26,540 bases of DNA from the IMG/VR virus record IMGVR_UViG_3300025584_000018, one strand, 5' to 3'. A program made the position numbers and the translations under genes. This document shows, piece after piece, positions 641 through 26,449 of the stretch; position 1 is the first letter of the stretch, and each line of letters begins with the position of its first letter. Under the pieces are notes generated by a model, which was given only the letters and a program-made list of their open reading frames with translations, had not been told where the DNA came from and made no database searches. The stretch is from a virus.

Positions 641-999
641 TTTACCACCTCTAATTTTGCTAATTCAGTTTTTCCAAATTGTGTAACGTGAGAACTAACC
701 ACGTGTTCGTTTCTATCGAAATTCTCTAGCCATTGTTGATGACGCAACACTTGATGTAAATCATACGCTAATTCACTATCTTCAGTATGTCCAAACATTT
801 GATTGTAATCATAATCAGAATCTAACGTTTTTAATAATTCACGTTGTTTATCATTTAACTTTTCTAATGATTTATCATCCCATGTAATATCATCCAATGC
901 ATATTTTAACTGACCAACTAACTGTCTCATTAATGAGTGAGTTGCTCGATTTAAAATATCGAGTTGTTTTTCATTTATTGTTAATGTGTATTTTTTCAT
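637..999 (-). CDS. Hypothetical protein (120 aa)
   Basis: ORF track; downstream of promoter 1026-1054. Confidence 0.8.
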   Translation of the reverse strand: MKKYTLTINEKQLDILNRATHSLMRQLVGQLKYALDDITWDDKSLEKLNDKQRELLKTLDSDYDYNQMFGHTEDSELAYDLHQVLRHQQWLENFDRNEHVVSSHVTQFGKTELAKLEVVK

Positions 1000-1025
1000 T
1001 TGTAGCCTTTATTTAGTCACCCTAT

Positions 1026-1054
1026 AATATACAACATATTTTTGTTAAAATCAA
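1026..1054 (-). promoter_or_regulatory. sigma70-like promoter TTGATT-N17-TATATT
   Basis: -35 at 1054-1049, -10 at 1031-1026, 17-bp spacer, just upstream of the ORF starting at 999. Confidence 0.7.
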
Positions 1055-1329
1055 GTAGTTTTTTTCATTTGTTTGTGAAATTTATTTAATTGTGCGGCTA
1101 ATAATTTAGTTTGTTGCTTATTTAACAGAATACTATCTGCACTTAACTCACCGTGCCATAGTGCTCTCCAAATATAAGATACTCGTTGTCTCAAAGTTGA
1201 GCTTCCCCAATTACTATATCTCATCATTGAGATTTCTATATCGTCAGTCCAATCTTTCCAAAGGGTTATTCTTATAGTTGAACAGCCACATTCACAATCA
1301 ACATAGTATTTTTCTTTATCATTTTTCAT
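1051..1329 (-). CDS. Hypothetical protein with CxCxC motif (92 aa)
   Basis: ORF track; YYVDCECGCS. Confidence 0.8.
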   Translation of the reverse strand: MKNDKEKYYVDCECGCSTIRITLWKDWTDDIEISMMRYSNWGSSTLRQRVSYIWRALWHGELSADSILLNKQQTKLLAAQLNKFHKQMKKTT

Positions 1330-1463
1330 TAGTCCACCAACGTTTTTTTAATATTAACTTCTGAGCCCATTCGAATTACAATCTTCTTAAACCAGATAGA
1401 GTTCATAACTTTATCAAATTCAACTTTTGGATTATATCTTTTGTTTGTTTTTTTATCTCTCAT
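1329..1463 (-). CDS. Small hypothetical protein (44 aa, not in ORF track)
   Basis: MRDKKTNKRYNPKVEFDKVMNSIWFKKIVIRMGSEVNIKKTLVD; AGGTG RBS; TAATG coupling to next gene. Confidence 0.65.
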   Translation of the reverse strand: MRDKKTNKRYNPKVEFDKVMNSIWFKKIVIRMGSEVNIKKTLVD

Positions 1464-1471
1464 AACACCTA

Positions 1472-1500
1472 AATCTACACATAATAAACGACAAAGTAAA
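1472..1500 (-). promoter_or_regulatory. Weaker sigma70-like promoter TTTACT-N17-TAGATT
   Basis: Same spacing and position as the other class members; two mismatches to the local consensus. Confidence 0.45.
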
Positions 1501-1503
1501 GGA

Positions 1504-1761
1504 TTATTTTGAATATTTTTTCCAAAGTCTATTACATTCTATCATATCTCTTTCTCTAATTTGTGTAGTTGGATAACATCCAATCATAGACTTAACCCGA
1601 AGAATATCACTTCGTTCAACTAGTGTTTGAGACGAAGAAGTAGTGAATATAATTCTTCGTAATAACTTATCTAATTTCTCTGTTATAGTATTTTGTTTAA
1701 ACATAGTATATACCCAATTATCATTAAATGATGGAGTTGATAATATAATTACCTTACTCAT
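1504..1761 (-). CDS. Hypothetical protein ending in CNRLWKKY motif (85 aa; probable start MSKVII)
   Basis: ORF track, start moved to the ATG overlapping the end of the upstream gene. Confidence 0.75.
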   Translation of the reverse strand: MSKVIILSTPSFNDNWVYTMFKQNTITEKLDKLLRRIIFTTSSSQTLVERSDILRVKSMIGCYPTTQIRERDMIECNRLWKKYSK

Positions 1762-2182
1762 CTTTGTATTTTTTCCATAATTCATTACACCGTAACATTT
1801 CAGAGCGACTTATCTCTCCATCATTTATTAGTCTATTCATTATATTATAGATTTCAAGCGTATGGTCTTCACTCCAATATGCCGCTCCGCAATTAATGAT
1901 AGCATTACTTAACTTTTTCAATTTATTTTTTACTTTGTAGAAAAAACCTTTATGATTATCATCTTCATTCATGTTAAAATCTACAATTATTCGTGCGTAT
2001 AATTCACTTGCACTTAATTTAGAAAGTTCATCGGCATTATAAATTTTATGTTTAATTCCTGGGATTTGTAAGTCTCCAAATACAGTATAGGAATCAGTGT
2101 TCGTATAATACTTAAACTTTTTAATTACACCTATACACTTTAGTAAATCTAATCCCTTATCTACGTGAGTGTATTTTGGCAT
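1754..2182 (-). CDS. Hypothetical protein ending in CNELWKKY motif (142 aa)
   Basis: ORF track; abuts the metallophosphoesterase stop. Confidence 0.8.
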   Translation of the reverse strand: MPKYTHVDKGLDLLKCIGVIKKFKYYTNTDSYTVFGDLQIPGIKHKIYNADELSKLSASELYARIIVDFNMNEDDNHKGFFYKVKNKLKKLSNAIINCGAAYWSEDHTLEIYNIMNRLINDGEISRSEMLRCNELWKKYKDE

Positions 2183-2857
2183 CTATATCTCTATAATGGT
2201 TACTGGATTTGTTAGTTTATATTGCTCGTTCATCACAGAAACGTTAAAACATTCAGTCACACTATCATCATTCCATTTGATTGTTTCTTTCATTCCACCC
2301 GAACCGTGGATATGGCCGAACATTGCAACTTTAGGTTTAACTCGTTCTAAATAATTTTTAAAGTGAATACAACCTAATGGTCTTTCGTGTTTATATTCTG
2401 GTGTAACTGAATCTAAAACTTTATATGGGGGGCCATGACAAACTACAACATCAGCTTCTGGTGCATTCTCCCAAAATATTTTTGATTGTCTTTCTGTAAG
2501 ATTGAATGCCCAATTATTAAATTCGGGTGTGAAGTTACTACCGAAGAATTTAAGTCCTTCTATCTCTACTACTGTATCGTGTATGTACATAGAATCACAT
2601 TCATTATCTATGACTTCTGCGTTATACGGAAAATCTTCAATCCCTAAGGAGTGATTTCCAGCAATCCAAAGTTTATAGTCAAACTGTGTTTGGCCTTTCA
2701 TCCAATATATGAAATCTTGAAGTTCAGTTGGTTTATCTGTGTATGTTGCATCACCTGCATGTACTAGCACCGAAGTAACATCATCTGAAATTTCAGGTAC
2801 ATCAAATGAATAATCACAATGATTATCCGATACTGCTATTATTTGTATTTTCTTCAT
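2183..2857 (-). CDS. Calcineurin-like metallophosphoesterase
   Basis: All five motifs in order: SDNH, HAGD, GNH, HGPP, GHIH. Confidence 0.9.
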   Translation of the reverse strand: MKKIQIIAVSDNHCDYSFDVPEISDDVTSVLVHAGDATYTDKPTELQDFIYWMKGQTQFDYKLWIAGNHSLGIEDFPYNAEVIDNECDSMYIHDTVVEIEGLKFFGSNFTPEFNNWAFNLTERQSKIFWENAPEADVVVCHGPPYKVLDSVTPEYKHERPLGCIHFKNYLERVKPKVAMFGHIHGSGGMKETIKWNDDSVTECFNVSVMNEQYKLTNPVTIIEI

Positions 2858-3180: not shown

Positions 3181-3466
3181 TCATATCCTTCTTGAGTCCC
3201 CCTAAATAATTTAATATTCTTGCTATTTTTCCACTCTCAACTCTATATGCAGTTTTATCAATTTGTTTTTTATCTTTCATCATTTCTACAGTTTTTGATT
3301 CTTTTTCCCAATGCTTGATGAGTTCATCAGTATTCATCTTAGAAAGTGCTTTAGCTTCATTTACAGATTCTTTAAATGATGTTTTAAATTCCTGACTCAT
3401 GGACTTACTCTGTGCTTGGATTTCCTCTCTAATCATTTCTCTTAATTGTGTTTTAGTTATTTTCAT
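3170..3466 (-). CDS. MKITK-leader protein A (98 aa), possible virion-internal protein
   Basis: First 16 aa identical to 3596..3973; AGGA RBS; ATATTTAT upstream; function inferred only. Confidence 0.8.
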   Translation of the reverse strand: MKITKTQLREMIREEIQAQSKSMSQEFKTSFKESVNEAKALSKMNTDELIKHWEKESKTVEMMKDKKQIDKTAYRVESGKIARILNYLGGLKKDMSGN

Positions 3467-3540
3467 TTTATTTATATCCTATAGTTATATGATTATAAAT
3501 ATACAAAACTTTTTTTTAATCCCATAAACTGAAAAAGTAT
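3420..3540. repeat. 121-bp direct repeat, copy 1 (copy 2 at 3927-4048)
   Basis: Identical except T8 versus T9; contains the 3' end of the 4024..4599 gene, ATATTTAT, an RBS and the first 16 codons of the MKITK genes. Confidence 0.97.
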
Positions 3541-3595: not shown

Positions 3596-3973
3596 TTACA
3601 ATATGTACGTACTTTTGACTTTATAGTTAATTTTCTTTTTACCATCTTCATCTATATACTCTATGTCAAAATCAAAGCTAGGAACTGACCCAAAATAATA
3701 AAATCTCACATCTACAATTTTACCCTTAGTAGCAGGAATTTTTTTCGTTTTCCCATGAGCAGTAACAACCTTATACCTATCATAGGTTACATTACTTCCT
3801 TTGAGTTTATTAATCGCAGACTTTATTAACTTATCCTCAGTAGTATCTCTAGCCTTTTCAGCACCATCTGCTATACCATTTCCAAGAGCATTAATTTGCT
3901 TTGAAGATACCGTGCCTTCATTCAATATTTCCTCTCTAATCATTTCTCTTAATTGTGTTTTAGTTATTTTCAT
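3596..3973 (-). CDS. MKITK-leader protein B (125 aa), possible virion-internal protein
   Basis: MKITKTQLREMIREEILNE followed by an unrelated Lys-rich body; function inferred only. Confidence 0.82.
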   Translation of the reverse strand: MKITKTQLREMIREEILNEGTVSSKQINALGNGIADGAEKARDTTEDKLIKSAINKLKGSNVTYDRYKVVTAHGKTKKIPATKGKIVDVRFYYFGSVPSFDFDIEYIDEDGKKKINYKVKSTYIL

Positions 3974-4048
3974 TTTATTTATATCCTATAGTTATATGAT
4001 TATAAATATACAAAACTTTTTTTTTAATCCCATAAACTGAAAAAGTAT
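3927..4048. repeat. 122-bp direct repeat, copy 2
   Basis: Direct comparison with 3420-3540. Confidence 0.97.
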
Positions 4049-6598: not shown

Positions 6599-6623
6599 TT
6601 TATTTCTCCTTAAAATAATCTTT
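6596..6623 (-). repeat. 28-bp gene-junction module AAAGATTATTTTAAGGAGAAATAAAATG, copy A
   Basis: Other copies at 7288-7315 (ATG>ACG), 8064-8091 (identical), 9140-9167 (1 mismatch); encodes RLF-stop fused to RBS and start codon. Confidence 0.95.
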
Positions 6624-7290
6624 CTTGTGTAGTATGTTTTTCGATTCTTTCTTCTGCAATGTTGAAATATGTTTCATCAATCTCAATACCTATAAAATCT
6701 CTATTAGTTTGTTTACAAGCAACTCCTGTTGAACCTGAACCCATAAAAGGGTCTAAAATAATTTGTGTTTCATCTGTATTATTTTTTACAAATATTTCAA
6801 GCATATCCACATTTTTTTCAGTAGGGTGTAATAATTTACTACTTGAAATTTTAGGAAATTCCATAACATCGGACAATCTTTTTTCTCTAAACAAACTTCT
6901 TCCTTTATGTGCATAAATTATAAATTCGTGTTTCGGTGCGTATGATGCCTTTAAATCTCCAGAGCCATGATTATTTTTAACCCAGACAATAATATTTTTT
7001 ATTTTGAAATATTTTTCAATAGATTGTTTAAATTTATCAACATTATGCCAACTACAAAAAATATATAAAGATGAATTATTATTAAGAATTTTATCTGATT
7101 TTATTAAAAAATCTTCAAGCCAAATTAAATTTGAATCATTTTTTATTTTATCAAATTTTTCTTTCACAACTCTTCTATTACTTTGAAAAGACATTCCATA
7201 AGGTGGGTCTGTAATTATAGCATCGACCTTAATCCCATCTTCAATCATTCTATCCATTGCTATTAAGCAATCTTCATTATAGAGTTTCGT
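6610..7290 (-). CDS. Orphan DNA methyltransferase 1, beta class, DPPY (probably m6A); apparent ACG start, 226 aa
   Basis: DPPY precedes DPFMGSGSTG; RBS then ACG-AAA-CTC-TAT-AAT-GAA-GAT-TGC (xKLYNEDC) in frame 11 codons above the track start, matching MTase 2 MKLYNEDC. Confidence 0.9.
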   Translation of the reverse strand, partial: TKLYNEDCLIAMDRMIEDGIKVDAIITDPPYGMSFQSNRRVVKEKFDKIKNDSNLIWLEDFLIKSDKILNNNSSLYIFCSWHNVDKFKQSIEKYFKIKNIIVWVKNNHGSGDLKASYAPKHEFIIYAHKGRSLFREKRLSDVMEFPKISSSKLLHPTEKNVDMLEIFVKNNTDETQIILDPFMGSGSTGVACKQTNRDFIGIEIDETYFNIAEERIEKHTTQERLF

Positions 7291-7315
7291 TTTATTTCTC
7301 CTTAAAATAATCTTT
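7288..7315 (-). repeat. 28-bp junction module, copy B (ATG replaced by ACG)
   Basis: Direct comparison with copies A and C. Confidence 0.95.
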
Positions 7316-8066
7316 GTTGTGTTTCTTTTATTCTTTTCTCTGCTATATCACAATACTCACTACTCATCTCACTACCTATCCAATTTCTATTATTTAAAAT
7401 AGCCATCTTTGCTGTTGTTCCACTTCCCATAAAAGGGTCGTAAACAATATCATTTTCATTACTCCAACTTATTATGTGGTCATTCGCTAATTGTTCTGGG
7501 AATTGAGCAACGTGATTAGCTGTATTATAACCGCCAGTGTTATACTTCCAAACATTACCTTTCTGTTTTTTATCTTTGGTTTTTAAAGATGTTTGTGTTT
7601 CTCTTAATCCTATACCAATTTCATTAGTTTTCCTGCTTCTTTTTATTGTTTTGCCAGCGTGAATACAATCAATCATTAAAGGATTAAAAGACTTTGGTTT
7701 TTCTTTACTGAAAACGAACATATATTCAAACTCTTGCTCATATCTTTTATGTGTTAGTGGTATAAAATTTGCTTTTTGGTAAATCATAGTGTCATTCAGC
7801 CTAAATCCACATTCTTTTAAAAATAATGCTTGTTTAAAAGATGTTCCTGTCTCACTTCCTTTTATTGTTGCATCTCCAACAATCCAAACTACTACACCGC
7901 CTTCTTTAGTTACTCTATACAATTCTTTAGCTATGCTTTCAAAATCAAAACTATAACCATTGTACGTCCTTAAATTGTCATAAGGTGGAGATGTTACTGT
8001 TAAGTCAATAAAGTTATCTTCCATTCTTGCCATTGTATCAAGGCAGTCTTCATTATAGAGTTTCAT
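7302..8066 (-). CDS. Orphan DNA methyltransferase 2, beta class, SPPY (probably m4C), 254 aa
   Basis: TSPPY catalytic motif; H..QFPE; DPFMGSGTTA SAM motif. Confidence 0.92.
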   Translation of the reverse strand: MKLYNEDCLDTMARMEDNFIDLTVTSPPYDNLRTYNGYSFDFESIAKELYRVTKEGGVVVWIVGDATIKGSETGTSFKQALFLKECGFRLNDTMIYQKANFIPLTHKRYEQEFEYMFVFSKEKPKSFNPLMIDCIHAGKTIKRSRKTNEIGIGLRETQTSLKTKDKKQKGNVWKYNTGGYNTANHVAQFPEQLANDHIISWSNENDIVYDPFMGSGTTAKMAILNNRNWIGSEMSSEYCDIAEKRIKETQQRLF

Positions 8067-8091
8067 TTTATTTCTCCTTAAAATAATCTTT
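8064..8091 (-). repeat. 28-bp junction module, copy C
   Basis: Identical to copy A. Confidence 0.95.
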
Positions 8092-9031
8092 GTTGTGTAG
8101 TATGTTTTTCAATTCGCTTTTTAGCTATCTCAAAATAATCTTTGTCTATTTCAATCCCTATAAAGTCTCTATTCAAGTTTTTACAAGCTACTCCTGTTGT
8201 TCCACTTCCCATTGTTAAATCAACTACTGAATCATTTTCATTGCTAAAAGTCTTCATCAAATCTTCAAGCAACAATACAGGCTTTTGCGTTGGATGGTAA
8301 CCGTCATAATCCTTTTTGTATTTTAAAATATTTGATTTGTATTTTTTACCTTCCCATAGGTTAAAGGTGCTTGCGAACCTTTTAAAACAATTAAAATGTA
8401 TTTCCTTTAACTCTTGGTATTCCCTATTAAAAAAACCAGTTACTTCTCTTAATTTTAAATAATGTTTTTCAGGTATCATTGATGGTTGCAATGAACTACA
8501 CCAATGGTAAGCGGCTCCACCGTGTCCTTTTGTATTTAATCCACAAACACCACACATTTCATCAAGTGTTAGTTTTGCTTTTTTACGTTCTATATTTAAG
8601 TATTCTCTATAACTATCATCTTCACCATAAGTTCCGTGAGAGCCTTTGCTAAAAACTAAAACATCTTCATAATAATTTAAAGGTGCTTTTTTAGCTGTTA
8701 AAGCATTTGCAAAATGGTCTTTCTCCCATATCATACTATAATTAAATGGTAAGTTTGGCAGTGCTTTATTTATTAATTCATTTGTAAATGGTTGCTGTGC
8801 TGTTAATATCATTTTGCCGTTTTTTCTTAAAATACGATTTGCGATTTCCATTATTTTATTAATATCAATAACACTATCCCATTCAGTTTTCCCTTTCATT
8901 CCATGATTTATGCTTTCACTATTTCCTAACCCTTTAACAGTTCCATAAGGTAAATCAGTCAATATTAAATCAACACTTCCATCTTTTATATGCTTGTGTT
9001 GTTCTAAACAGTCACCTTTATAGAGTTTCAT
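8078..9031 (-). CDS. Orphan DNA methyltransferase 3, beta class, DLPY, 317 aa
   Basis: TDLPY, HPTQKP, DLTMGSGTTG, FIGIE; central insert of about 90 aa. Confidence 0.92.
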   Translation of the reverse strand: MKLYKGDCLEQHKHIKDGSVDLILTDLPYGTVKGLGNSESINHGMKGKTEWDSVIDINKIMEIANRILRKNGKMILTAQQPFTNELINKALPNLPFNYSMIWEKDHFANALTAKKAPLNYYEDVLVFSKGSHGTYGEDDSYREYLNIERKKAKLTLDEMCGVCGLNTKGHGGAAYHWCSSLQPSMIPEKHYLKLREVTGFFNREYQELKEIHFNCFKRFASTFNLWEGKKYKSNILKYKKDYDGYHPTQKPVLLLEDLMKTFSNENDSVVDLTMGSGTTGVACKNLNRDFIGIEIDKDYFEIAKKRIEKHTTQQRLF

Positions 9032-9046
9032 TTTATTTCTCCTTTG

Positions 9047-9142
9047 TTAAATTGTTCCGTAAACAATACTAACAACAATTATTACCGTGATTGCTATTAA
9101 TCCAAAAACAAATACTATATTATCATCAAGTTCAATCTTCAT
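9047..9142 (-). CDS. 31-aa single-TM peptide inside the MTase array (not in ORF track)
   Basis: Junction copy D supplies RBS and ATG; MKIELDDNIVFVFGLIAITVIIVVSIVYGTI. Confidence 0.7.
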   Translation of the reverse strand: MKIELDDNIVFVFGLIAITVIIVVSIVYGTI

Positions 9143-9167
9143 TTTATTTTTCCTTAAAATAATCTTT
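9140..9167 (-). repeat. 28-bp junction module, copy D
   Basis: One mismatch (AAGGAA versus AAGGAG). Confidence 0.93.
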
Positions 9168-10086
9168 CTTGTTTAGTATGTTTTTCAATTCTTTCTTCTG
9201 CAATTTTAAAATAGTTTTCATCTAATTCAATACCTATAAAATCACGATTTGTATTCATACAAGCAACTCCTGTACTTCCACTACCCATTGTTAAATCAAC
9301 TACTAAATCGTTTTCATTACTAAATGTCTTAATCAAATCTTCAAGCAACAATACAGGCTTTTGCGTTGGATGGTAACCGTCATAATCCTTTTTGTATTTT
9401 AGTATATTGCTTTTGTATTTGTTGCCTTCCCATAAGTTAAATGTACTTGTATGTCTTTCATTTATCTTTTCAAGCTCACTGTAATTTAAAAATCCATCCA
9501 TATTATTAATTCGGTATTCTGTAATTAAAGCTAAGTATGTTTCTTTTTTGCAAAGTTCAAATTGTGAGCTTTTTATTCTAAAAACGTGGTCAGCTCTTTG
9601 TCCTATTGCCTCAATTACATTTTTCTTTTTAAGTCCAATAAAAGAAAGCACGTTACCAAAATACGTTCTAAGTGGGTGCAAGTTTTCAACATCATACTTT
9701 TTGCTAAAAACTAAAACATCTTCAATATAACTTACAGGTGCTTTATTTGACACTAAACAATTTGCAAAGTGCATTTTATCCCAGTACATATTATAGCTAT
9801 GAGGTAAGTTAGGAATAGCTTTTGATATTAATTCAGTTGTAAAAGGTTGGTTAGCTGTTAAAATCATCTTGCCATTTTTTCTTAATATCCTATTGGCTAT
9901 CTGCATGACTTGATCGGTATCAATAGTAATATCCCACTCAGAAACATTATATTTTTTTTCTTTTGCTACCCTGCTATTACCCAACCCTTTAACCGTTCCA
10001 TAAGGCAAGTCCGTAAGCACCAAATCTACACTTCCATCTTTTATATGCTTGTGTTGTTCTAAACAGTCACCTTTATAGAGTTTCAT
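9154..10086 (-). CDS. Orphan DNA methyltransferase 4, beta class, DLPY, 310 aa; paralog of MTase 3
   Basis: Start corrected to MKLYKGDC (AAGGA RBS); near-identical N- and C-terminal blocks to MTase 3 with an unrelated central insert. Confidence 0.92.
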   Translation of the reverse strand: MKLYKGDCLEQHKHIKDGSVDLVLTDLPYGTVKGLGNSRVAKEKKYNVSEWDITIDTDQVMQIANRILRKNGKMILTANQPFTTELISKAIPNLPHSYNMYWDKMHFANCLVSNKAPVSYIEDVLVFSKKYDVENLHPLRTYFGNVLSFIGLKKKNVIEAIGQRADHVFRIKSSQFELCKKETYLALITEYRINNMDGFLNYSELEKINERHTSTFNLWEGNKYKSNILKYKKDYDGYHPTQKPVLLLEDLIKTFSNENDLVVDLTMGSGSTGVACMNTNRDFIGIELDENYFKIAEERIEKHTKQERLF

Positions 10087-10087
10087 T

Positions 10088-10273
10088 TTATTTTTCCTTA
10101 AATGTTTTAAGTTTTCCATTTTGAGCTGAATACCATTTGTTCATATACCTAAATTCAAATCCTTTATCTCTCATACAAATAGCAATTTCTTCACCATGTT
10201 TAGTTTTTAAAACAACTCCGTTATAAATCTCTTGCAGGATTATTGTGCCTTTTTTGTCTGTTGTTACTTTCAT
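10088..10273 (-). CDS. Hypothetical protein (61 aa; start MKVTTDKK)
   Basis: GGAGAAATAAA-ATG at 10273. Confidence 0.75.
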   Translation of the reverse strand: MKVTTDKKGTIILQEIYNGVVLKTKHGEEIAICMRDKGFEFRYMNKWYSAQNGKLKTFKEK

Positions 10274-11516: not shown

Positions 11517-11951
11517 TTAACTGTTTTCATTTAATACTTCCTTGACTTCCATGAAGAAATCATTGTCATCGTTTTTAACTAACCACACATTCTCAAATAA
11601 ATAGAGATAGTCCCCCCATGACTTATCAAAATAATCTAACATTGTTTCCAAGTTAGAAAATTCATTTATTTCTAAATCATCACCTCTGTCTCTATGATAT
11701 GCCATTGTAACATCTTTCAATTCAATTTCATTTCCTCTTATTGGGAATGTTTTAAAATTATTTTGTGTTTCAATGTCGTCTCGTAAGTATGATAATGATC
11801 CGAGTTTAAGTAACTTATCTACTTTATTTTCATCAGTAAAACTATCTACTAATGTTTGTCCAACCCCTTCTGGATACCCGTCGAAATGACAATATACTGC
11901 CTTGAATGTTTCGTCTGGTTGTTTCTTTGCTATATATGACCGAGTGCTCAT
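11517..11951 (-). CDS. Conserved phage hypothetical protein (144 aa)
   Basis: MSTRSYI...VYCHFDGYPEGVGQTL...KVDKLLKLGSLSYL pattern recognised from a widespread phage family. Confidence 0.85.
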   Translation of the reverse strand: MSTRSYIAKKQPDETFKAVYCHFDGYPEGVGQTLVDSFTDENKVDKLLKLGSLSYLRDDIETQNNFKTFPIRGNEIELKDVTMAYHRDRGDDLEINEFSNLETMLDYFDKSWGDYLYLFENVWLVKNDDNDFFMEVKEVLNENS

Positions 11952-12015
11952 TTTTTATTCCTCATTTGTTGCCTTAATATACTACGAAAAATCGTAAAAG
12001 TCAAGCTTTATTTTT
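11952..12015 (-). repeat. 64-bp promoter/RBS cassette, copy 1 (identical copy at 26224-26287)
   Basis: Contains TTGACT-N17-TATATT (12004-11976), TACGA-N4-TCGTA inverted repeat in the spacer, and GAGGA RBS. Confidence 0.97.
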
Positions 12016-12017
12016 AA

Positions 12018-12278
12018 TTAAATTCTATTGTGATTATTACAACATTCAACATCACAATAATTATATAGTTGTATTTTACTTTTACCCTTTAAGTCCGACC
12101 TATCTATTTTAATATCAGACTTTCTATATATTGGCATTTCTTCAAATGATCCAAGAGGTGGAACTACGTGGCATACTAATGGATTAGTTGCCATCTTTCC
12201 ACAATTATGACATTTTCGTTTTATTGGTGATTTTATTTTCTTCTTCAAGTGATTGGACCTCCAGTATAAATTTCCCAT
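12018..12278 (-). CDS. Small Zn-binding hypothetical protein (86 aa)
   Basis: CHNC...YCDVECC. Confidence 0.7.
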   Translation of the reverse strand: MGNLYWRSNHLKKKIKSPIKRKCHNCGKMATNPLVCHVVPPLGSFEEMPIYRKSDIKIDRSDLKGKSKIQLYNYCDVECCNNHNRI

Positions 12279-12308
12279 TTTCCACTATCTATAAGCGGTT
12301 TAGCTTTT

Positions 12309-13244
12309 TTAATATTTTTCAAACGTCAAATCTCTTTCTCTAATTCTATAAAAATCACAATTTAATACTTCTTTTATTTCATTCATACGCTCAATATCTT
12401 TTTTCTTTAACTTGCCATTAAAATAATGGTTATCTTCATCCCATTCTATCACTATATTATATATCGATTCATAATAATCCACAAAATATCCAGCTACCTT
12501 TTTCTCTCCGCCATTCATTGCATGTTGTCCATTCCATCCATTATATTTATTTAACCAATCAAAGTACTCGCAAGCAACTTTATTAAAACCAATAATGCTT
12601 CCGGTTAATCCAATTCTTTCAATAACAGCTTCTCGTTTATTTAACCTATTTAATTTACCTTCGTCAGTTTGATAAAATTTAAGTAATGATTTTCTTATTT
12701 TATCTTTAACATCTTTTCTACAAGATGGATTTTTATATCCTGCAAATCTTCCTTTATTGGCATTGCTAATTTTTTCACAGGTTTCTTCTGTTACTTCTCT
12801 ATTAGAATTTCCATCAGCAGTTAATTGTGAATATTCACTACAAACAACCGGCGCGTTTGGAAATTTATTTTTATATTCTTGAAATGTTATATTGTGAGTA
12901 TCTAAATGTCTAAAATGTATTTGTCTTAGTTTTTTCCCACATATTTGACATTTCATATAATCAATATTTTCAATACCTGATAGAAGTTTCCATTTTCTTT
13001 TGTCTAAATTTCTATTATCTATACCACGACACTTAATAGAACAATAATATTTATATCCAGTTCCTATATTTTTAAATTGAGTTTTATTACTACATTCGTC
13101 TCTACTACATAATATTTCATTATCATTTTCTGCCATGAAATTTTGATAATAAGTCTCGTGAGATATATTAGGGTGATTTTTTGATAGATGTCGTGATAAC
13201 CACATCATTGTTTTAAAACTTTTATTACAAATTTGACATTTCAT
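12309..13244 (-). mobile_element. Free-standing homing-endonuclease-like gene (311 aa): Zn-finger repeats, NUMOD3-like segment, Vsr/EDxHD-like nuclease
   Basis: Start at AAGGAGAAATAAA-ATG (MKCQIC); two CQICxK...H..H fingers; ETCEKISNANKG; YFVDYY...IVIEWDEDNHY...KDIER...CDFYRIRE. Confidence 0.75.
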
Positions 13245-13272
13245 TTTATTTCTCCTTAGTAGATTATTAATG

Positions 13273-13344
13273 TTATAGAACAAGTAATCCTTACTTACTA
13301 AGGTTTCGGGAAACGGTAGCAACTCCGCTGTCCTTGTCCTATAA
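13273..13344 (-). ncRNA. Candidate structured 5' leader (three-way junction) of the endonuclease gene
   Basis: 12-bp closing stem UUAUAGGACAAG/CUUGUUCUAUAA (one G-U) enclosing two hairpins; GC-rich island in AT-rich context; folded by hand. Confidence 0.55.
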
Positions 13345-13354
13345 TAAATATCAT

Positions 13355-13993
13355 TTAATTTAAAATTGTCCATTTTTTGTCATTACCTAAATCATTCATA
13401 ACCTTTTTATATTTTAAATTTTTAATTTCTCCTGTTATATTATTTTTTACTTTTACTTTATCATTTCTTTCGTACATTTTATCATTTTTAAACGGAACTA
13501 TTTTTTTCTCATAATCAAATATTGTTTTTCCGTTAAGATGTGAAATTTCATGTTGTACAGCGATTGCTTCAAGTAACCGTAAATCTTTATCATCTGCATT
13601 TTCTTTTTCCCAAATTCCTTTACCACTGTTTGTTGAAACTCCACTAAAATACCAATTACTTTCTTCTTGTTCTGTATGTACTATAATATTCTTATATCGT
13701 TTGGTGTGTACACCTTTCTTTGGATATGAGAGACATCCCTCATAAAAATCTATTTCGTCCCATTTTTCAATTACTGTTGGGTTGATTAGTATAAGTGGTT
13801 CTCTAACATTTACTACTGCTACTTGAGCGTCTATATTGCACTGTGGGGCTGCCAATCCGATTCCCGATTTATTTTTACTTAAAATCTGGAATAATTCTGT
13901 TGCTATTTTTAACCCATCTTCAACTGAAACTTTTTTGAGTTTCTTATTTATAACCGGATTATGTTCTTTGTTGCAATTAATTATTTTTCGCAT
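13355..13993 (-). CDS. def: Peptide deformylase (212 aa)
   Basis: GIGLAAPQ, EGCLS and QHEISHL (HExxH) motifs. Confidence 0.95.
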   Translation of the reverse strand: MRKIINCNKEHNPVINKKLKKVSVEDGLKIATELFQILSKNKSGIGLAAPQCNIDAQVAVVNVREPLILINPTVIEKWDEIDFYEGCLSYPKKGVHTKRYKNIIVHTEQEESNWYFSGVSTNSGKGIWEKENADDKDLRLLEAIAVQHEISHLNGKTIFDYEKKIVPFKNDKMYERNDKVKVKNNITGEIKNLKYKKVMNDLGNDKKWTILN

Positions 13994-14246
13994 AAACCAT
14001 CCTGTATACCTTATATAATCTGTTACAGTATTTAAAATCTAACTCACTTATATAACCGTCATCCATATAACCATATTCAAGTTTAGTAACATATTTAAAA
14101 TCACTACTCCAATCTCTATCTGTACAATTCAATTCCTTACCTGGTGGTATTTTATACTCACCACCATTAACACGTTTTTTATTGTAGTCCGCCCATTGAA
14201 TCATAGTTGACCGTAAATGTTTAAGTTTTTTTAATACAGTATTCAT
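13977..14246 (-). CDS. Hypothetical protein with CNRLYKVY motif (89 aa)
   Basis: ATG at 14246 overlaps upstream TGA. Confidence 0.75.
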   Translation of the reverse strand: MNTVLKKLKHLRSTMIQWADYNKKRVNGGEYKIPPGKELNCTDRDWSSDFKYVTKLEYGYMDDGYISELDFKYCNRLYKVYRMVYAKNN

Positions 14247-16243: not shown

Positions 16244-16270
16244 ATGATTTTGTCCTTTTAGTTTCCTTTG

Positions 16271-16299
16271 ATCTTACAACAAAAAAATGAGAAAGTCAA
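16271..16299 (-). promoter_or_regulatory. sigma70-like promoter TTGACT-N17-TAAGAT
   Basis: Shares 18 bp AAAAATAACACTTGACTT (16293-16310) with the promoter at 16796-16813. Confidence 0.7.
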
Positions 16300-16309
16300 G
16301 TGTTATTTT

Positions 16310-16546
16310 TTATAATTCTGGGTGTGATTTGTCAAACCAAAAATCTTCATCATTAACATATTCCATATCTATATAGTCCATAATTTCGCCAGCAAGATTT
16401 TCATTAAATTTCCAAAAATCATCGCCAGACATTTCATTAATTTTTGTTATGTGAACTTCATCACTCGTTACATTCCACGATACATTATAATAAATATTAG
16501 TATCTTCATCAAAATACTCAAACTCTTCATCAAAAAACCAAGTCAT
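16310..16546 (-). CDS. Highly acidic small protein (78 aa)
   Basis: 22 D/E versus 3 K/R; aromatic-rich. Confidence 0.8.
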   Translation of the reverse strand: MTWFFDEEFEYFDEDTNIYYNVSWNVTSDEVHITKINEMSGDDFWKFNENLAGEIMDYIDMEYVNDEDFWFDKSHPEL

Positions 16547-19270: not shown

Positions 19271-20902
19271 TTACATCATGCCTGGCATTCCACCCATTCC
19301 GCCTGGTGGCATCATAGGTGATGTGTCGTCACTTGGAATTTCCGTAATAACGGCCTCCGTTGTGAGTAACATACCAGCGATTGAACTTGCGTTCTCTACT
19401 GCTACACGTGTAACCTTAGCTGGATCAATAATGCCAGCCTTGAACATATCTACATATTCTCCACTACGAGCATCAAACCCAGTTCCATTTTTACTATTAA
19501 GAACTTCACGTGCTACGACGGAAGATTCTTCACCAGCATTTTCACAGATTTGACGAAGTGGTGCTTGAAGTGCTTTTCTCATGATATTCACTCCAACCAT
19601 TTGTTCATCATCTACTGATACATCGTCAAGAGCTGAAATAGCACGAAGTAGAGTAACACCACCACCAGCGACGATACCTTCTTCAACTGCTGCTCGGGTT
19701 GCGTGTAACGCATCTTCCACACGAGCTTTCTTCTCTTTCATTTCAACTTCAGTTGGTGCTCCAACATTTAGTACTGCAACTCCACCACTTAGTTTAGCAA
19801 GTCGCTCTTGTAACTTCTCAATATCATAATCGGAAGTGGATTTTTCAATCTGAACTTTGATTTCATTAATACGAGATTTAATTGTATCTACATCACCACT
19901 ACCACCAACGACGGTTGTATTGTCTTTGTCGGATACAACACGTGAACAGGTTCCCATAAAATCAAGAGTTGTGTTCTCTAATTTATGACCAGCTTCTTCA
20001 GAAATTACGGTTGCTCCGGTGAGTGCCGCAATATCTTCTAACATTGATTTACGTCTGTCTCCAAATCCTGGTGCCTTCACTGCAAGAACTTTGAATGTTC
20101 CACGGAGTTTATTCACTACGAGTGCCGCGAGTGCTTCACCATCTACATCTTCAGCTACTATGACGATTGGTTTTCCTGTCTGAACTACTTTCTCCAAAAT
20201 AGGTAGAACGTCTTTCACATTGGAAATCTTCTTGTCATGTAATAAGATATATGGATCTTCAAGAACTGCTTCCATATTATCAGAATCGGTTACGAAGTAT
20301 GGTGAAAGATAACCACGATCAAATTGCATTCCTTCTACGAAATCCAAATATGTTTCAGCTGTCTTACTTTCTTCTACAGTAATAACACCGTCTTTACCAA
20401 CTTTTTCCATTGCCTCAGCAATCTTTCCACCAATCTCACTATCATCATTTGCTGAGATTGTAGCTACTTGAGCAATTTGATTTGAATCTGGAAGGTCTTT
20501 AGCTGCGTTACGGATGGACTCTACAACTTTACTTGATGCAAAATCAATCCCACGTTTAATGGACATTGGATTTGCACCCGCTGTAACATTCTTCACTCCT
20601 TCGTTTATGATGGCCTGTGCGAGAACCGTGGCGGTAGTTGTACCATCACCAGCTATATCAGATGTTCTTGACGCAACTTCTTTCAATAACTCTGCCCCTA
20701 CACTTTCAAACTTATCTTCAAGTTCAATTTCCTTTGCTACTGTAACCCCATCTTTGGTTATGAGCGGAGAACCGAACTTCTTTTCAATAACTACATTCCT
20801 ACCCTTTGGACCTAATGTAACCTTAACCGCGTTTGCAAGTTGGTCTACACCAGACATCAAAGCTGAGTGGGATTGAGCATTGTATTTTATTTCTTTAGCC
20901 AT
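19271..20902 (-). CDS. groEL: Chaperonin GroEL (543 aa)
   Basis: [57 protein letters not shown] tail. Confidence 0.99.
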
Positions 20903-26223: not shown

Positions 26224-26287
26224 TTTTTATTCCTCATTTGTTGCCTTAATATACTACGAAAAATCGTAAAAGTCAAGCTTTATTTTT
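26224..26287 (-). repeat. 64-bp promoter/RBS cassette, copy 2
   Basis: Identical to 11952-12015; promoter at 26276-26248 directly precedes the 1259-aa gene. Confidence 0.97.
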
Positions 26288-26449
26288 TATTTTTAAATTA
26301 TCCTTTGGAACAAACCATATTCGACCCATAGTATCTTTTACGCGAAGATGGCCTTTCAAAGTAGAATTACCATCTTCTTTAACTAACTCATTCTTATATA
26401 GAATACCGTTAGAAGTTGGGTAATCTTTTATAACCTTATACTTATTCAT
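26273..26449 (-). CDS. Small beta-rich hypothetical protein (58 aa, not in ORF track)
   Basis: GGAGGA RBS; MNKYKVIKDYPTSNGILYKNELVKEDGNSTLKGHLRVKDTMGRIWFVPKDNLKIKNKA; SH3-like spacing. Confidence 0.75.
   Translation of the reverse strand: MNKYKVIKDYPTSNGILYKNELVKEDGNSTLKGHLRVKDTMGRIWFVPKDNLKIKNKA

Follow-up and report, generated by a model that had tools for sequence, protein, structure and literature searches.

In this study, the spacer between a peptide deformylase gene (def) and a nuclease gene was analyzed in a viral DNA stretch of 26,540 nt (IMG/VR record IMGVR_UViG_3300025584_000018), which at its full length is called the window. All genes of the window are on the minus strand, as are all features of the def–nuclease locus described below. 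The def gene (13993–13355; Pfam E = 1.7e-21) is separated by 110 nt from the open reading frame (ORF) of the nuclease. The nuclease gene (12309–13244) encodes 311 amino acids and starts at ATG 13244 behind a strong Shine-Dalgarno (SD) sequence, AAGGAG (13257–13252). An RNA leader with a three-way junction (13344–13273), a member of a conserved phage RNA family, lies in the spacer. As a preliminary description of this DNA had stated, the element starts at ATATTTAT (13351–13344), a promoter-like (-10-type) element of this phage group, and its stem P1, which begins 10 nt past the def stop codon, ends 15 nt ahead of the SD. The RNA is probably the 5' leader of a portable homing-endonuclease expression cassette, composed of promoter element, leader, SD, and ORF, and would repress translation.

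Relatives of the leader were collected with sequence patterns. The pattern built on the conserved core found 11 true copies in IMG/VR. On metagenomes, the first pattern gave at least about 10 new members, and most of its other matches were chance matches in GC-rich DNA. A second pattern, in which P2 was left free and which also included GAAA and AGUA, gave 65 viral loci. Overall, 60 distinct members were parsed. The covariance model R1 was built from 36 members of uniform length (alignment A5), because MAFFT had misaligned members with a 4-nt P3 (A4). R1 matched the window copy with 77.7 bits (E = 2e-17), and this was its sole match in the window. A single phage record of 224 kb contained seven leader matches. 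The motif scan of 185,579 prokaryote species genomes gave only one match, in a Flavobacteriaceae metagenome-assembled genome, so the motif is essentially confined to viral and metagenome contigs. Among 50,697 GenBank phages, blastn with the locus and with two leaders as queries found no true match.

Several atypical copies were also seen. A truncated copy in L149 (110–199, plus strand) repeats the initial 49 nt of a leader located 8.6 kb from it. L193 has a full copy (1314–1381, plus strand), behind which neither a complementary SD nor a gene is present. Both copies are probably remnants of cassettes that were lost. A weak R1 match of 23 bits in L165 (9684–9756, plus strand) lies behind the T4 late consensus TATAAATA. 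Its junction nucleotides are those of the family, but P3 is a plain hairpin and no obvious SD partner or downstream gene is present; it is possibly a related but different motif.

The 76-nt core of the window leader had a folding energy of -21.4 kcal/mol (z = -3.4) in single-sequence folding, and none of 200 shuffled sequences was as stable. The minimum-energy and centroid structures disagreed in the interior of the core, so a single-sequence fold cannot settle this part. In alignment A2, which includes the pseudoknot described below, 91% of cells were paired and 17 pairs were changed on both sides. Its covariation score was 0.551, against 0.191 for shuffled alignments (none of 500 reached the observed score) and 0.09–0.14 when the partners were slid. 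In A5 (36 members; P1, P2, and P3), 93% of cells were paired and the score was 0.584, against 0.209. The preliminary description had proposed a covariation check on relatives, and the helices do covary. P1, P2, P3, and the loop–SD pseudoknot are all upheld by compensatory changes.

The 12-bp P1 proposed earlier is present, formed by 13333–13344 and 13273–13284 (13344–13333 with 13284–13273), and its 3' arm is defined by both fold and covariation. The pair G13333-C13284 is invariant. Across the family P1 is variable in sequence and typically has 4–6 bp. Among relatives, 7–8 of the P1 pairs are changed on both sides. Two nuclease homologues, P0002 (75% identity) and P0003 (63%), lie directly after def, keep the leader, and show double compensatory changes in P1. 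The junction strand J1/2 (G-A-C, 13332–13330) is invariant in alignments A1, A2, A4, and A5, an invariance partly imposed by the search patterns. The P2 hairpin (13312–13329) consists of AGCGG (13329–13325) paired with CCGUU (13316–13312). This 5-bp core belongs to the 7-bp bulged P2 drawn previously; the outer pairs of that drawing were not supported, as they use U13311 and C13310, which are assigned to P3 by comparison of relatives. Three pairs of P2 covary, and the second pair is a G.U, swapped twice for the isosteric A.C. P2 is closed by loop L2 (13324–13317), of 6–8 nt in the family.

P3 starts directly after P2. Its 5' strand (13308–13311) forms U13311-A13288, C13310-G13289, and C13309-G13290, followed by a C13308.A13291 mismatch. 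In the family, the pair corresponding to U13311-A13288 is followed by 2–5 covarying pairs, with CUUG/CAAG, UCGG/CCGA, and CUGA/UCAG as examples among relatives. The 3' side (13285–13295) comprises AGUA (13295–13292), the P3 3' strand (13291–13288), and J3/1 (UUA, 13287–13285), all invariant or covarying columns in A2 and A5. About 20 nucleotides of the three-way junction are fixed among the 60 members. An internal loop is formed by GAAA (13304–13307) opposite AGUA. It was invariant in 60/60 parsed members, which is partly imposed, as the parsing regular expression requires GAAA and AGTA; AGUA was also invariant in 23/23 members of the first scan, whose pattern did not contain it. The pair flanking the internal loop covaries (A2, pair 41-58). 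In sequence, the loop fits the loop-E/sarcin-ricin bulged-G consensus (AGUA opposite GAA with Watson-Crick flanks). In two members found by R1, L208 and L209 (record G001, 60573–60639 and 159838–159901), the GAAA/AGUA loop is replaced by Watson-Crick pairs; this subclass retains the junction, a palindromic L2, and the anti-SD loop.

The terminal loop L3 (CCUUAGUA, 13296–13303; 7–8 nt in the family) is an anti-SD sequence. In the window, L3 (13303–13296) has an 8-bp complementarity to 13261–13254. This pseudoknot 3' strand, UACUAAGG, is the exact complement of L3, ends in the AGG of the SD, and together with the overlapping SD occupies 13252–13261. The pairing covers the SD and the 5 nt before it. 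Between P1 and this strand is an A/U-rich linker of 11 nt (13262–13272); family linkers have 5–17 nt (median 11) and are 83% A/U. The window duplex has an energy of about -8.6 kcal/mol, with a family mean of -8.1 kcal/mol.

The L3–SD pairing was found throughout the family. Contiguous pairing of 6–8 bp between loop and SD was present in 57/57 members with downstream sequence able to pair, and six of the eight pairs were changed on both sides. L3 occurred in 43 different sequences, 20 of them seen in the first set of 23 members, and every one had its own matching partner downstream. With these partners L3 averaged 7.7 contiguous pairs, against 5.2 with swapped partners. The start codon is mostly 8–9 nt past the pseudoknot. 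The leader is predicted to occlude the SD through L3 pairing, contrary to the earlier statement that, unlike in T4, the SD is left free. The P3 drawn previously (CCUUA/UAAGG) was likewise not sustained, since its CCU stretch pairs with the SD and its AGG (13290–13289) pairs with CC (13310–13309), as judged from 60 relatives. That helix, between the anti-SD and the neighboring AAGG, cannot form in roughly one fifth of members, and its pairing does not exceed that of swapped controls.

The history of the locus was deduced from related phages. In L210–L212, def is 58% identical and runs uninterrupted into the next gene, and no R1 match was found there. In the window, def is homologous to that of L210 up to codons K-Y-K-K (AAG ends at 13403), and homology returns only at 12310. 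BLASTP against the L210 def aligns up to a substitute C-terminal tail of 15 codons with the stop TAA 13357–13355 (13355–13402). The original 3' end of def (P0034; 21 codons and stop, 12245–12310) is stranded directly after the nuclease stop; it shares 17 of 21 residues with the C-terminal end of the uninterrupted L210 def, the DNA aligns as well, and it carries the start of the next gene (ATG 12278). Because the def 3' end is stranded after the nuclease when compared with the uninterrupted L210 def, the inserted segment is 13402–12311 (1.09 kb). It comprises the substitute def tail and stop codon, then ATATTTAT, the leader, and the nuclease ORF. The window shares this cassette with L001 and L004, whereas L210–L212 lack it. 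The alleles thus differ in whether they carry the cassette at one fixed site of a conserved host gene, which is a criterion of free-standing homing endonucleases. Since the nuclease-free def allele lacks the segment that contains the leader, leader and nuclease gene travel together in a presumed mobile cassette, as had been suggested.

The genes behind the leader were examined in the other members. Among 41 downstream ORFs of at least 60 amino acids, Pfam identified LEM-3/GIY-YIG, GIY-YIG, SegE, NUMOD1, NUMOD3, NUMOD4, HNH, HNH_3, I-HmuI-like, DUF723, and DUF7487 domains, Ros/MucR fingers, and a few HTH_36 proteins. Many other downstream ORFs were truncated, as expected of decaying homing-endonuclease genes. 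The leader heads at least five unrelated predicted nuclease architectures, including GIY-YIG, HNH/NUMOD4, DUF723, and PD-(D/E)xK. At the same def locus, L015 and L018 have the def tail and promoter element of the window and a near-identical leader as far as the start codon; the gene that begins there is of the unrelated GIY-YIG type and is frame-shifted. In L015 (2936–3668, minus strand), the gene behind this window-type leader is of the GIY-YIG/NUMOD3 type and is spread over three frames, which indicates decay.

These genes bear on the proposal of the preliminary description that the RNA is a cofactor or autoregulatory site specific to this nuclease, similar to HEARO/IscB. In its favor, leader and nuclease lie side by side and are mobile as a unit, and the nuclease has several predicted nucleic-acid-binding zinc fingers. 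However, this leader, its invariant junction included, is found ahead of unrelated nuclease families, among them the GIY-YIG pseudogene at the same def locus. Nuclease homologues with 50% identity (L005–L007) have a small ORF in place of the leader, and the variable parts of the leader covary with the SD and with nothing in the protein. A nuclease-specific role is highly improbable, and the leader is, judging from the predicted downstream genes, not tied to this nuclease.

The nuclease protein was analyzed by domain and structure searches. A Ros/MucR-type zinc finger (residues 95–140) was above the Pfam cut-off, and a C2H2 finger (residues 2–24) was sub-threshold. NUMOD3, DUF559, and MTES_1575 were found in homologues, NUMOD3 only there. 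Conservation is concentrated in the C-terminal domain, where E267, D269, E270, and H273 are invariant and lie in a W-D-E-x-x-H context. The AlphaFold model had a mean pLDDT of 79, with values above 90 over residues 219–311. Foldseek gave no match at E 0.001 or better, and direct sequence searches of PDB and NCBIfam gave no nuclease match, including none to 3r3p or Vsr; a profile search gave a weak match to PvuRts1I only (E = 0.2). On structural re-alignment, residues 219–311 gave Z scores of 9.0 with Cas4, 7.9 with Hjc, 7.8 with ngo0050, 7.4 with Vsr (1cw0; root-mean-square deviation (rmsd) 2.8, 87 residues aligned), and 7.3 with I-Bth0305I (3r3p; rmsd 3.9, 79 residues aligned). The Vsr and I-Bth0305I scores tie with those of Hjc, Cas4, and splicing endonucleases, and many PD-(D/E)xK nucleases score equally or higher. 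The C-terminal part (219–311) is predicted to adopt a PD-(D/E)xK nuclease fold. In the earlier assignment of Zn fingers, a NUMOD3-like segment, and a Vsr/EDxHD-like nuclease, the Ros/MucR finger was recovered, NUMOD3 was placed in the homologues, and "Vsr/EDxHD-like" is plausible at the fold level of the model, among PD-(D/E)xK families without a single best family. The nuclease resembles I-Bth0305I and Vsr-like (EDxHD) enzymes in its free-standing form, modular N-terminal DNA-binding repeats, and predicted C-terminal PD-(D/E)xK fold. Its motif, E-x-D-E-x-x-H, is similar but not identical to the EDxHD of Vsr-like homing endonucleases.

Candidate promoter elements were very frequently found directly before P1. 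In the window, six of ten sense-strand copies of ATATTTAT lie within the 13% of the sequence that is intergenic (p = 6e-4), and the copies are mostly 21–51 nt ahead of start codons. About a dozen members have a perfect TATAAT 1–9 nt ahead of P1, in some cases accompanied by TTGACA, and about eleven have TATAAATA 0–6 nt ahead of it. Since these elements stand directly before P1, the leader is probably the 5' end of the nuclease gene's own transcript. ATATTTAT is also upstream of a second endonuclease gene in L015, where a fractured IMPDH-like gene (774–2631, minus strand), whose N-part ends in a split-intein-like segment, is followed by a gene for a 292-aa Vsr-like endonuclease (TIGR00632, E = 8e-7); no R1 leader match was found at this gene.

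Other repeats with promoter signals were seen in the window. Two paralogous small genes share an exact 98-nt direct repeat (3420–3517 and 3927–4024) that spans ATATTTAT, the ribosome-binding site (RBS), and their initial codons. A 68-nt promoter/RBS cassette containing TTGACT-17-TATATT occurs at 11952–12019 and 26224–26291 with 99% identity, 14.3 kb apart, with weaker copies at 1448–1515 and 16247–16314. One of its copies sits just downstream of the small gene next after the nuclease cassette.

The position of the promoters bears on whether the leader acts as in T4, where the block would fall only on read-through transcripts from def and an internal or adjacent promoter would give shorter, translatable ones. 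This timing is the established paradigm for I-TevI, segB, and mobE (PMC2988022). A transcription start about 6–8 nt after ATATTTAT would strip the outer half of the window P1, and the TATAAATA copies before P1 would fit a late promoter. However, all candidate promoters (ATATTTAT, TATAAT, and TATAAATA) are upstream of P1, the anti-SD loop is downstream of every one of them, and transcripts from the gene's own promoter keep both pseudoknot strands. A typical P1 has only 4–6 bp and begins where transcription would start, and no conserved promoter was found in the 5–17-nt linkers of the members. T4-type timing is unlikely.

A plain def terminator, or a coding N-terminal extension of the nuclease, was considered because the stem begins close behind the def stop and the nuclease frame is open upstream to ATG 13373, giving an ORF of 354 aa whose extended form is annotated as a gene in L001. 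No terminator-like site was found in 11900–14100, and the stem has no U-tract, so the terminator put forward as a refuting option in the preliminary description was not found. The open frame back to ATG 13373 is accidental, since an in-frame stop interrupts the corresponding leader in L004 and promoters, not ORFs, precede most relatives. The changes among relatives are compensatory for RNA pairing and not synonymous. Both versions of this explanation are extremely improbable and were rejected, as comparison with the relatives contradicts them.

A self-cleaving or processing RNA, analogous to the GIR1 lariat-capping ribozyme, or an RNase site that parts the nuclease mRNA from the def mRNA, was also weighed. 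The junction is compact and highly conserved, and GIR1 in twin-ribozyme introns is a reported precedent for a ribozyme dedicated to an endonuclease mRNA (PMC2219692). However, no Rfam ribozyme family matched at E up to 10, no known catalytic core was recognized, and the strongest covariation is with the SD. Processing is very unlikely as the explanation of the leader, and a catalytic role like that of GIR1 in eukaryotic endonuclease mRNAs may be named, by analogy, as a further possibility.

The results suggested the following mechanism. The L3–SD pseudoknot would hide the SD from the 30S subunit, and the potentially harmful nuclease would then be translated only weakly or only under some condition. 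The leader is very probably a regulatory element, as first proposed. It would be a regulated device and more than a passive clamp, as suggested by its fixed junction, its conserved G.U wobble, the narrow range of pseudoknot energies, and L2 loops that are self-complementary. The response may be to a ligand, to a protein or other factor that many hosts share, or to the pairing of one RNA copy with another.

Several points weigh against a repressing leader of this kind. Repression by SD pairing is deduced from the sequence. Pairing of all 8 loop nucleotides at once is sterically demanding, and the full helix may not form. The promoters are upstream of the whole fold, and the escape route of T4, in which late transcripts lack the inhibitory arm, does not obviously apply; the model thus offers no route by which translation would be allowed. 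The "invariance" is partly imposed by the search patterns and the parsing expression. Behind a few leaders (L193 and the truncated L149 copy), a pairing partner or gene is lacking, and the window L2 (13324–13317) is not self-complementary, its longest palindrome being 2 nt.

In the family as a whole, L2 was rich in palindromes, and it is self-complementary in the majority of relatives. Among 27 distinct L2 loops, 13 had a perfect palindrome of at least 6 nt and 20 had one of at least 4 nt. Shuffled loops gave means of 2.0 (maximum 8) and 10.4, respectively, and the observed counts were never reached in 5000 shuffles. The palindromic loops are too short for self-folding, so loop–loop pairing between two RNA copies would be the natural reading. 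Kissing-loop homodimers of the HIV-1 DIS type have a self-complementary hexamer in a loop of 7–9 nt; such a hexamer is found in the family and not in the window loop.

Within the repressing cassette, the leader may be a genuine switch whose junction binds a small molecule, an ion, or a widely conserved protein, or whose copies pair through L2; either event would decide if L3 retains the SD. Consistent with this are the invariant junction (GAC, UUA), the G.U kept or replaced by an isosteric A.C, the loop-E-like motif, the pseudoknot energy in a narrow range around -8 kcal/mol, the significant excess of 6-nt palindromes in L2, and the riboswitch-like position at the presumed 5' end of its own transcript. 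On the other side, the controlled genes are selfish nucleases without a metabolic pathway, so no ligand suggests itself. A "parking" helix, in which the anti-SD pairs with the AGG of P3, would be the alternative state; it is possible in 41/60 members and is no better than swapped controls (4.7 vs 4.3 pairs). The window L2 lacks a palindrome, and two members lack loop-E. The switch is a tentative possibility. A new class of sensor RNA for selfish nucleases, in which the junction senses a universal signal or L2 docking reads transcript or genome copy number, is speculative and somewhat doubtful. If it exists, the SD would be freed only at the right moment, e.g., late in infection or upon co-infection with an uncut target genome.

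Among the selfish genes of large phages, those for homing endonucleases are the most common, and the carrier has to be protected from their expression. The controls known until now were gene-by-gene hairpins in T-even phages. One elaborate, conserved leader reused by unrelated nucleases in many uncultured phages, with up to seven copies per genome, points to a common portable control module and probably a common signal. For RNA biology, the leader is a new motif with four covarying helices, a loop-E-like element, a loop–SD pseudoknot, and a palindromic loop. It can also serve as an annotation marker for the 5' boundary of endonuclease cassettes, as in the def insertion.

Two further features of the window lie apart from the nuclease cassette. 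Four tandem paralogous DNA methyltransferase genes (phrog_67) are located at 6610–10119 (minus strand), each with a repeated 77-nt upstream segment. A phage GroEL gene is present at 19271–20902.

The leader was compared with known RNA families. No Rfam 15 family matched the window at gathering score, including int-alpA (RF02996), Glutamine-II (RF01704), and the riboswitch and HEARO models, in agreement with the earlier view of an undescribed module. Below threshold (E up to 10), the only overlapping match was freshwater-2 (RF02980), with 23.7 of the required 49.9 bits and mostly on the SD. The motif in 11 other members gave no Rfam match at E up to 5. A sub-threshold Glutamine-II match in L004 (2058–2109, plus strand; 17.9 vs 33 bits, E = 2.4) is inside an IMPDH-like gene and is probably due to chance. 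Full-text literature searches gave no description of the motif; it may be present without a name among the over 10,000 candidate viral RNAs catalogued in 2023 (PMC10690425).

Among mobile nucleases with an adjoining structured RNA, HEARO, the omega-RNA of IscB, is a long guide RNA of one family (RuvC plus HNH), whereas the RNA of the window is 70 nt, stands before genes of many families, and pairs with the SD of its own mRNA. The pseudoknot–SD riboswitches (e.g., glutamine-II, preQ1, and SAM-II) are similar in having a conserved 5' aptamer-like fold, covariation, and a captured SD. Unlike them, the present family matches no Rfam riboswitch model and would control selfish nucleases without a pathway. 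A metabolic ligand is made less likely by the downstream genes, since these encode homing endonucleases from several families.

Two earlier systems come closest: the hairpins of T-even phages and those that Dassa et al. described together with two conserved motifs. RBS-sequestering structures have been described for I-TevI, I-TevII, I-TevIII, segB, and Aeh1 mobE, and they are relieved by a late promoter inside the structure (reviewed in PMC2988022). The window leader is like them in pairing with the SD of an endonuclease gene, in its adjacent promoter, and in its presumed purpose of limiting nuclease synthesis. The T-even hairpins are gene-specific and simple and share no sequence, whereas the window leader belongs to one conserved three-way-junction family with a loop–SD pseudoknot, which spans unrelated nuclease genes in many phages and has its promoter upstream of the fold instead of inside it. 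In marine phage metagenomes, Dassa et al. (2009) reported hairpins and two MEME motifs in the 5' untranslated regions of free-standing Vsr-like endonuclease genes in "fractured genes" and proposed that the invading cassette brings a control region and the stop codon of the upstream gene (PMC2677866). The window cassette agrees with their account in its free-standing, possibly Vsr-like nuclease and in having its own control region and an upstream stop, here that of def. As described, their systems are simple hairpins containing TATAAATA (PMC2677866), unlike the three-way-junction fold of the window leader.

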